A stretch of 64,000 nucleotides of DNA from the sequence record MH719082.1; one strand, written 5' to 3'. Made by a program: the position numbers and the translations under genes. The notes under the pieces are model-generated. The model had not been told where the DNA came from. It did not search any database and was given only the letters and a program-made list of their open reading frames with translations. Of the stretch, positions 27,302-28,064 are shown piece after piece. Position 1 is the stretch's first letter, and each line of letters begins with the position of its first letter. This DNA comes from Escherichia phage vB_EcoM_IME392.

Positions 27302-27332
27302 TTTAACAGCCTTTCGACTCATCAAAAGAGTG
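27302..27332 (-). promoter_or_regulatory. Conserved bipartite intergenic motif, copy 11
   Basis: TTTAACAGCCTTTcgactcatcAAAAGAGTG; the most downstream of three tandem copies upstream of the tRNA cluster. Confidence 0.35.
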
Positions 27333-27483
27333 TTAAATTGTCCGCTCCCTATCACCGAGCACTGTGATGATGGGAAAATAGGGAGCGAAGCGATTCCTAA
27401 GTTTTATCTCTTCTCTAAGTGATTAACCGTTACATACGATGTACCTTCTCGAAAGAATTAAGCCGGTATTGGCACTTCAGACA

Positions 27484-27516
27484 CTTTAACAGCCTTTCGA
27501 CCGTACAAAAGAGCGG
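27484..27516 (-). promoter_or_regulatory. Conserved bipartite intergenic motif, copy 12
   Basis: CTTTAACAGCCTTTcgaccgtacAAAAGAGCGG, 6 nt after the stop of gene 27522..28064. Confidence 0.4.
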
Positions 27517-27521
27517 CGTAA

Positions 27522-28064
27522 TTAGACGCTCGCCTCAGGCACTTTAACAGCCTTTGGACGTGTAAAAAGAGCGGGATTATACCATTCTGGGGTACGATAG
27601 AAAGAGATCTTACGACCCTCTTTCTTCCAGAAGTAGAATTTATCGTTGAGGTAGTTACGGTACTTCTCGTAGACTGTCTCACCAGGAGCACCTGATACAC
27701 ATGCATACGGAGTCATATCGGTCTCTGGACCTACTACCAGATTTTTAGGTAGTGCCACAAGACGGGATAAAATTTCTTCGGTTGCATGGAGCCGTCCGGT
27801 ACGTTCAAAGAATAGCATGCATAAATAGCTTGCCAAGTCACGAACGAAGTTGTAGTTACCTGACGATTCACGAACCCACTTAGCACACGGATGATTAACA
27901 TGCGTCTGCTTATAAATACCCTCGATAGCGTTTTCGCCATCCAGAACATGATGAGCAGTAGATAATAACTGAGCACACTCAATAATCATTTTATTCTGGT
28001 GCATAGGCATACAGTGGTCCATAGCACATTCTAACGCATCTTCGTGAGTACGGAAAATATTCAC
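27522..28064 (-). CDS. Hypothetical protein (His/Cys-containing; function unknown)
   Basis: 180-aa ORF with a GTG start per the ORF track and GGAGTA RBS. The last 17 codons (...TRPKAVKVPEASV) are encoded by motif copy 13. Confidence 0.5.
   Translation of the reverse strand: MNIFRTHEDALECAMDHCMPMHQNKMIIECAQLLSTAHHVLDGENAIEGIYKQTHVNHPCAKWVRESSGNYNFVRDLASYLCMLFFERTGRLHATEEILSRLVALPKNLVVGPETDMTPYACVSGAPGETVYEKYRNYLNDKFYFWKKEGRKISFYRTPEWYNPALFTRPKAVKVPEASV
27542..27574 (-). promoter_or_regulatory. Conserved bipartite intergenic motif, copy 13 (embedded in the 3' end of CDS 27522..28064)
   Basis: CTTTAACAGCCTTTggacgtgtAAAAAGAGCGG. Confidence 0.35.

Follow-up and report, generated by a model that had tools for sequence, protein, structure and literature searches.

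A stretch of 64,000 nucleotides (nt) from Escherichia phage vB_EcoM_IME392 (record MH719082.1), taken as a whole and called here the window, has at 27290-27575 three tandem copies of a motif of about 40 bases that lie on the minus strand ahead of a 2.4-kb non-coding region with tRNA genes. The three elements are probably copies of the phage's own early or middle-class promoter, the reader of which would be a phage-specified apparatus. In kind, the array would be a phage-specific promoter family in the familiar stacked arrangement before stable-RNA genes (promoters stacked ahead of tRNA genes being well known elsewhere). The promoter reading is favored because the copies are co-oriented with genes and placed just before them, because the early block begins with a copy and the late block lacks the motif, and because of purifying selection and of conservation in distant relatives.

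The motif and where it occurs

The motif can be written cCGCTCTTTTg-N8-AAAGGCTGTTAAAnTGT. A gap-free alignment of 36 distinct 45-mers, from the window and from EP_H11 (L002), the nearest record in the phage collection with 91% identity across 25000-29000, gives the consensus nCCGCTCTTTTnAnGnnTCGAAAGGCTGTTAAAnTGT, in which AAAGGCTGTT is invariant, as are C3, C5, T9 and G36. Alignment columns 28-35 read TG-T-TAAAnT, with TG and T30 invariant and A31 and T35 each present in at least 90%. This is the layout of an extended -10 element, in which a TG at -15/-14 precedes a hexamer having T-12, A-11 and T-7, and CTTTTG occupies the slot, 16-18 bp upstream of the -10, where a TTGACA-like -35 element would be.

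The three tandem copies are located where a sequence-only reading of this DNA had put them, being recovered both by a pattern search and by a weight matrix. The search, with a 31-nt pattern, at most 3 mismatches and 100 shuffles as background, yielded nine matches in the window versus 0.00 expected, with the array matched at 27302-27332, 27485-27515 and 27543-27573 (plus-strand coordinates; 1, 0 and 2 mismatches). The weight-matrix scan gave 15 window copies, all in minus orientation and all within 1-29204, and counting these from the left reproduces the numbers 11, 12 and 13 used earlier for the three.

Positions 1-29200 of the window hold replication and early genes on the minus strand (topoisomerase II, helicases, SbcCD and exonuclease), and 29293-64000 hold head and tail genes on the plus strand. 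All 15 window copies share the orientation of the early and replication genes; by weight matrix EP_H11 has 24 copies, every one running in the direction of its early block, while its late block is free of them. No copy scoring 12 or more occurs at 29205-64000 of the window or in the late block of EP_H11. The motif is restricted to one temporal class of genes.

Twelve window copies precede a protein-coding gene, and 11 of them end 7-72 nt short of its start codon. The twelfth, copy 8, overlaps the only mechanically called start, a GTG lying 9 nt inside the motif, and an ATG preceded by a Shine-Dalgarno sequence about 12 nt downstream of the copy is more likely the true start. Copies 10-13 precede RNA without a reading frame, so that the motif is not a translational signal. 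Copy 15 (29160-29204, minus strand) heads the minus-strand early block; it lies in the divergent intergenic region, which must contain a leftward promoter, and has the ATG of the first gene close behind it. Copy 5 comes directly after a canonical terminator, GGGTGGC-TTCG-GCCACCC-TAATTTTT, the order being terminator and then promoter. Leave-one-out scoring places copies 14, 12 and 11 nearest to the consensus among the window copies, the best match being copy 14 (28136-28180, minus strand), 72 nt before a 180-amino acid (aa) gene whose own end is part of the array.

The array in close genomes

Copies 13, 12 and 11 together span at most 285 bp, after which come a non-coding leader of about 565 nt and tRNA-Arg. 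All three being on the minus strand, they do face the tRNA-Arg and tRNA-'Met' genes, as had been noticed at the outset, and on condition that the copies are promoters, and only then, they are a set of tandem stable-RNA promoters. Copy 13 (CCCGCTCTTTTTACACGTCCAAAGGCTGTTAAAGTGCCTGAGGCG; 27531-27575) lies within the last 17 codons of the 180-aa gene (27522-28064, minus strand), which belongs to the PF03013/phrog_624 family and is pyrimidine-dimer glycosylase-like. In the window and in EP_H11 it codes for the tail of that protein, NPALFTRPKAVKV (the translation ends ...NPALFTRPKAVKVPEASV*). The earlier description of an array without an intervening gene is thus right for the space between copies, but not for copy 13 itself. 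Copy 12 (27473-27517) fits the 31-nt pattern without a mismatch and ranks second in the window for its fit to the consensus, and its upstream flank resembles that of copy 10; copy 11 (27290-27334) is also the center of a hairpin.

The locus was compared in four close genomes, namely the window, EP_H11, L168 and L169, of which L169 is about 99% like the window and L168 is as divergent from it as EP_H11 is. Three of the four (window, L169 and L168) have all three copies, copy 13 included, with the same 58-bp spacing and with an identical copy 12 core. EP_H11 has two copies at the array, one of which is a fusion with its left half from copy 13 and its right half from copy 12, and it is without exactly 58 bp between equivalent points of those two copies. 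On the simplest reading, three copies are the older state and EP_H11 lost one repeat unit via recombination between copies. Gain of a 58-bp duplication by the window was considered and rejected, the presence of three copies in L168 and L169 making this the commoner state. The cores of copies 11-13 hardly vary among the four genomes, and the roughly 100 nt that separate copy 12 from the hairpin preceding copy 11 diverge by about 15%, as estimated from the alignments.

Distant relatives

With increasing distance the core of the motif persists, in intergenic sites that are orthologous. L167 and L166, which are 79% and 58% identical, respectively, in a neighboring protein, keep AAAAGGCTGTTAAnnTG before the genes for an AAA_28 kinase, a YfbR-like protein, DNA polymerase A and a 483-aa protein, and in them the distal box decays. 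Acinetobacter phage Ab1-TPeters, of another host genus and with an RNA polymerase β' 38% identical, has about 25 copies of AAA[AC][GC]CTGTT(T)AAnnTGT, all co-oriented with early genes; its late block has none that the weight matrix scores at 12 or above, and a variant copy is present in its own divergent region. Its four most uniform copies are in a 3.3-kb largely non-coding region (with a few small open reading frames annotated) around tRNA-Arg(tct) and tRNA-'Met'(cat), and one copy is 139 nt before tRNA-Arg. The placing of copies around the same two tRNAs suggests that the link between the signal and the tRNA pair is old.

Pattern scans of IMG/VR and of a metagenome collection gave chance singletons, except for one 1.2-kb contig (L155), and in an RP13 fragment no comparable motif was seen. 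The annotated 'sigma-70 promoters' of YerA41 were set aside as candidates, having no motif in common with this phage.

Hairpins H1 to H3

The perfect 10-bp inverted repeat reported earlier between copies 12 and 11 is present, with coordinates one base on from those given for it, as CGCTCCCTAT at 27343-27352 and ATAGGGAGCG at 27378-27387. Together with an inner extension it forms hairpin H1 (27343-27387), and an inverted repeat as good as this arises in 1.3% of mononucleotide shuffles of the interval. Where a single hairpin between copy 12 and the leader had been implied there are two adjacent ones, as copy 11 is itself part of a 20-bp near-palindrome (27298-27341): hairpin H2 (27297-27342) consists of copy 11 and a mirror image of its own right half. 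A further hairpin, H3 (27251-27275), lies downstream of copy 11, where the leader begins. All three are drawn on the minus strand.

The hairpins were folded from the four-genome alignment. In H1 none of the 16 pairs is broken in any of the genomes, the outer pair being changed from C-G to A-U in EP_H11 and one pair from U-A to U-G in L169. In H2 the changes, G-U to G-C and U-A to U-G, preserve pairing and no pair is broken. In H3 pair 220-240 is changed from C-G to U-A, which is compensatory, and three further pairs are altered on one side only, and all changes preserve pairing but for one, at an outer pair that reads U-U in EP_H11. Several pairs that form as G·U on the gene-sense strand correspond to A·C on the opposite one, and because of this the structures fit sense-strand RNA better than a DNA cruciform or antisense RNA. 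H1-H3 would fit best as a conserved series in sense-strand RNA, and if that is so, upstream RNA, whether from copies 13 and 12 or from the upstream operon, runs through copy 11. A 29-codon open reading frame after copy 11, overlapping H3, was rejected as an explanation of the conservation there, with a 1-nt indel breaking the frame in EP_H11 and the changes in the stem being compensatory.

No T-run comes after any of the three hairpins (the next bases are GACAATTT for H1 and TGGAGTTTC for H2), so these are not canonical terminators, and none of the terminator-like sites in 24000-29400 coincides with H1, H2 or a motif hairpin. RNase III could plausibly cut a stem of 20 bp. Elsewhere, the motif core GGCTGTTAA pairs with a downstream inverted copy (ACAGCC) at 3806-3850 of the window and at 32886-32944 of EP_H11, and at the latter a 17-bp stem is followed by a T-run, in effect a terminator built on the promoter core. 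A palindrome, AGGGAGCTCCCT, that resembles the H1 stem (ATAGGGAGCG) occurs 9 times in YerA41.

The polymerase question and a proposed mechanism

Two papers group EP_H11 and IME392 with the phages SP-15, YerA41 and RP13, in which thymidine is heavily modified (bioRxiv 10.1101/2025.03.26.645540; PMC12686479), and their group is proposed to carry hypermodified thymidine. The DNA of the phage under study is probably thymidine-hypermodified, and the window encodes a 5-hydroxymethyldeoxyuridine (5-hmdU) DNA kinase domain (Pfam E 3e-35). Almost all genes of EP_H11 are annotated 'hypothetical'. Its β' is encoded in two halves (26582-28096 and 29676-31244), with the C half before the N half, and the split has a likeness in the cyanobacterial arrangement. 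Bacterial β' is the closest match to the halves (E about 4e-51 for that of E. coli), with a cyanobacterial γ subunit among the lower-ranked matches. Two conserved proteins without an assigned function accompany the split β' (EP_H11 23475-24926 and 28905-29660). For the conserved protein next to the N half, AlphaFold2 gave a poor predicted local distance difference test score (pLDDT 56.6) and Foldseek against the PDB found nothing below E 0.9.

In neither EP_H11 nor Ab1-TPeters is a β, α or σ subunit detectable by sequence. Searches for β or σ among the neighbors of the β' genes with Pfam and PHROGs found none, tblastn and phmmer with the YerA41 β found no β, and a PDB sequence search of four candidates found no β or σ. 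Among the large early proteins scanned in the window and EP_H11, DNA polymerase A, helicases, topoisomerase II, SbcCD, ligase and the β' halves were recognized, and no single-subunit RNA polymerase was seen. In YerA41, a distant relative, RNA polymerase subunits are expressed early and are present in virions, and the RNA-seq paper on that phage reports no promoters (PMC7354516). A 'sigma factor' once annotated in YerA41 was dropped from consideration, being gone from the final record. A scan for σ70-type -35/-10 promoters picks up no motif copy. In 24000-29400 of the window it finds 8 matches versus 10.0 ± 2.8 expected, which is chance level, and in the early region of EP_H11 (32000-50000) it finds 19 versus 35.2 ± 5.8 expected from composition, a depletion that looks as if such sites were avoided there.

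Every sequence test that was run agrees with the promoter role put forward for the motif in the sequence-only reading, with the addition that copy 11 and the inverted repeat belong to a hairpin series. The sequence shows the copies, where they occur, how far they are conserved and the hairpin changes that preserve pairing; initiation in the interval and its start site are inferred, as are the polymerase involved and what the hairpins do. On the mechanism proposed, the same signal stands ahead of almost every transcription unit in the replication and early block, and here it is stacked before a 2.4-kb non-coding region with tRNA-Arg(UCU), a tRNA-Ile2-like tRNA, a tRNA-like RNA and long structured RNAs. 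The essential block would be AAAGGCTGTTAAnnTG, in which a -10-like TAAnnT follows TG and an upstream extension reaches into the invariant AAAGGC, with a faster-evolving distal box, CCGCTCTTTT, about 10 nt farther upstream. The reader would be either a polymerase assembled on the bacterial-type split β' of the phage or a specificity factor that the phage supplies, rather than the unaided host σ70 holoenzyme. Transcripts from copies 13 and 12, or from the upstream operon, would pass copy 11, the RNA of which would fold with H1 and H3 into a series that is probably a processing or 3'-end structure, and copy 11 itself would start a leader that is later processed to tRNAs.

A more particular version, less likely than not, is that the motif is the promoter of an uncharacterized system in which the lone split β' replaces the host subunit, or nucleates a very divergent phage polymerase, and reads AAAGGCTGTTAAnnTG. 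Such an enzyme might sense modified thymidines and ignore host promoters, and the promoter sequence might at copy 11 have been reused as an RNA hairpin for processing or ending upstream transcripts.

Alternatives

Several observations weigh against a promoter with a phage-specified reader. With no β or σ detectable, the idea of a phage polymerase is weak, and host σ70 itself recognizes a TG-n-TAAnnT layout, at extended -10 promoters. Between copy 3 and its gene lies a canonical hairpin with a T-run, the order there being promoter, terminator, gene. Copy 11 of EP_H11 has TGAATT versus TAAATT, an A to G change at the key second position of the -10-like element, with the H2 pairing kept, and at this copy the hairpin rather than the promoter may be the selected feature, at least as important as initiation. 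Moreover the core is within a hairpin in copy 11, in window copy 2 and at EP_H11 32908-32944, and with the core so placed in several copies the motif may also act at the RNA level. As to the reader, a serious alternative, albeit one that we regard as rather unlikely, is that the host σ70 holoenzyme reads the promoters as extended -10 elements and that a phage activator on the upstream boxes replaces the -35 contact, for which MotA/AsiA at T4 middle promoters is the model. TG is one base before the T1/A2/T6 hexamer in 34 of the 36 distinct copies, Ab1-TPeters keeps the hexamer with TG one or two bases upstream, a -35 is absent and yet an upstream box is conserved, and a complete phage polymerase could not be assembled from sequence. 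However, the invariant AAAGGC directly touches TG, which is not the place of a -30 activator box, and about 17 conserved bases far exceed the need of σ70 alone. Further, the same core is found in E. coli and Acinetobacter phages and it is the distal box, the putative activator site, that decays, and the DNA is probably thymidine-hypermodified (bioRxiv 10.1101/2025.03.26.645540). The number of conserved bases, the sharing of the core by phages of two host genera and the depletion of σ70-like sites are the reasons for favoring a phage-specified apparatus.

It is improbable that the motif is mainly an RNA-level signal, with the copies marking RNA ends as processing sites, stabilizing hairpins or terminators between cistrons. 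The halves of the motif are partly complementary (GC-CTTT.../...AAAG-GC), and the resulting dyad is paired in 82.7% of cells, with some covariation at the inner pair 12-19. Pairing in a column-shuffled control is 81.3%, though, and inner pairs fail in 14-15 of the 36 copies (pair 12-19 is unpaired in 15), which argues that the dyad arises largely as a side effect of having two conserved boxes; the stem also changes register from copy to copy, and a motif hairpin as a required structure was rejected on the pair counts. Pair-preserving changes in the 20-bp stem of copy 11, one of them breaking the -10-like hexamer, and the core-containing hairpins of window copy 2 and EP_H11 32908-32944 do speak for an RNA-level signal. 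Against it, the conserved core (GCTGTTAAnnTG) is mostly outside the motif hairpin, at none of the three copies does a T-run come after the hairpin, and in two distant phages a copy heads the early block, at sites requiring a promoter. There is a very slight chance that the copies have no direct role in initiation and instead serve a DNA-binding regulator of the phage as its operators, or else are repeats that form recombination hot spots, the latter on the model of the promoter-early stem-loops of T4-type phages. The exact 58-bp deletion in EP_H11, the alikeness of the upstream flanks of copies 12 and 10 and the fact that the copy-flanked tRNA region is the most variable in the locus speak for this. 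Repeat recombination is, however, to be expected for any repeated promoter, and it leaves the strict orientation, the position before genes and the distant conservation of the core unexplained.

Downstream RNAs and neighboring genes

Copy 11 and tRNA-Arg are separated by the non-coding leader of about 565 nt (26726-27289, minus strand; fold z -3.4), which is conserved in EP_H11 at 26935-27289 and is otherwise window-specific. An insertion absent from EP_H11 holds a hydrophobic small open reading frame of 30 codons (MINPLIVGLFCILYIANAVYVDGWESIIRQ; 26813-26905, minus strand) with a GGAG ribosome-binding site. ARAGORN and Rfam both identify tRNA-Arg (anticodon TCT; 26650-26725, minus strand), which is followed by a variable stretch in which EP_H11 has an extra tRNA-Gly, the copy-flanked tRNA region being the most variable part of the locus. 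The second tRNA (anticodon CAT; 26105-26180, minus strand) is 'Met' to ARAGORN and had been read as tRNA-Met. It matches the tRNA-Ile annotated in all 5,426 E. coli genomes from end to end, at 88% identity, and is most likely tRNA-Ile2, reading AUA after lysidine modification. The two phage tRNAs most likely decode AGA and AUA; these are the rarest E. coli codons, and supplying the tRNAs for such codons is a common phage strategy. Rfam found only these two tRNAs, both at gathering threshold over the whole window and in a permissive E-value mode over 25100-27650.

Just upstream of the CAT tRNA is a conserved non-coding stretch of 255 nt (26185-26440, minus strand) with several perfect 11-12-bp long-range inverted repeats, and a 23-bp stem flanks tRNA-Arg (26731-26807); these repeats and this stem are possible processing stems. 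Right after the CAT tRNA comes an RNA of about 175 nt (25925-26100, minus strand) that looks tRNA-like, having two T-arm-like hairpins (GGTTCGACTCC and GGTTCGATTCC) and a closing stem ending in ACCA. Neither ARAGORN nor Rfam makes a call on it, and Ab1-TPeters has at the equivalent place a weak, sub-threshold match to a permuted transfer-messenger RNA. Downstream of the tRNAs, copy 10 (25763-25807, minus strand) is followed by a 585-nt stretch (25186-25770, minus strand) with no reading frame and no Rfam match and with a z of -3.8 versus shuffles, a candidate for a large structured RNA. Most of it is about 98% identical to EP_H11 as read from the alignment (94.3% by BLAST over 25150-25770). 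The non-coding parts are conserved better than the neighboring gene, which is 85% identical at the protein level.

Two other sets of genes bear mention. Genes for the 5-hmdU kinase domain, a glycosyltransferase-like protein, a PIG-L deacetylase and a methyltransferase adjoin (1740-2711 on the minus strand, 2711-3790, 4879-5490 and 7973-8713), and the set looks like a thymidine hypermodification module, with the glycosyltransferase-like match beside the kinase domain being weak (E 0.023, under the Pfam cutoff). At 5505-5589 (minus strand), copy 3 extends over the stop codon of a gene for a BCCT-family betaine/choline transporter (5577-6959; Pfam E 1e-92), which is unusual in a phage.

Comparison with known systems

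If the promoter reading is right, the motif maps promoters in a group of phages with poor annotation (15 sites in the window, 24 in EP_H11 and about 25 in the Acinetobacter phage), and it supplies a defined DNA target for asking how heavily modified thymidine DNA is transcribed, and a handle on the role of a lone split β' gene in a phage. The message of the array itself is modest, its arrangement being an ordinary one. Neither the motif consensus nor an enzyme reading it was found in the searchable literature, including by full-text search for the core.

Promoters of the T7, SP6 and phiKMV type are about 23 bp long and are read by a single-subunit RNA polymerase. As with these, a long near-invariant repeat here precedes most units of one temporal class, is co-oriented with the genes, and is sometimes in tandem and sometimes overlaps the end of the preceding gene; unlike them, it has a σ-type -10-like hexamer and is accompanied by a β' of the multisubunit type. 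T4 middle promoters combine a MotA box at -30 with a σ70 -10 element, through sigma appropriation, and likewise have no -35, a TAnnnT-type -10 and a phage-specific upstream box before early and replication genes and the tRNA region, whereas the invariant block here contacts TG and the -10 element instead of lying at -30. No homologue of MotA or AsiA came to light, no search aimed at one having been made. The σ70 extended -10 element, TGnTATAAT, shares the TG one base before a T1/A2/T6 hexamer and the lack of a -35 requirement. It differs in that here seven extra upstream bases (AAAGGC plus C) and a downstream TG are invariant.

The late consensus of the jumbo phage AR9 is AACA-N6-TW, and the motif does not match it. 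With phiKZ and AR9, jumbo phages having promoters for multisubunit polymerases (PMC5312081, PMC7598289), the present group has in common split β'-type subunits and a short promoter consensus of its own, but its β' is far nearer to bacterial β' than to their enzymes, and one β' set only was found, with no β. A giant virion polymerase gene like that of N4 is also absent. The hairpin promoters of the N4 virion RNA polymerase have a stem of 5-7 bp and a 3-nt loop, and their structure is required. A small hairpin can be drawn within the present promoter as well; in contrast to N4, its loop is of 4 nt, it is about 20 nt upstream of the -10-like element and its pairing is not above shuffles.

For the array as such the nearest parallels are the P1-P2 promoters of E. 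coli rrn operons and the T4 tRNA cluster, with at least two promoters within about 60-250 bp of tRNA or other stable-RNA genes and with long flanking stems suited to processing. What sets the IME392 array apart from them is that its signal would be a general early promoter, and that one of its copies appears to be an RNA hairpin as well.

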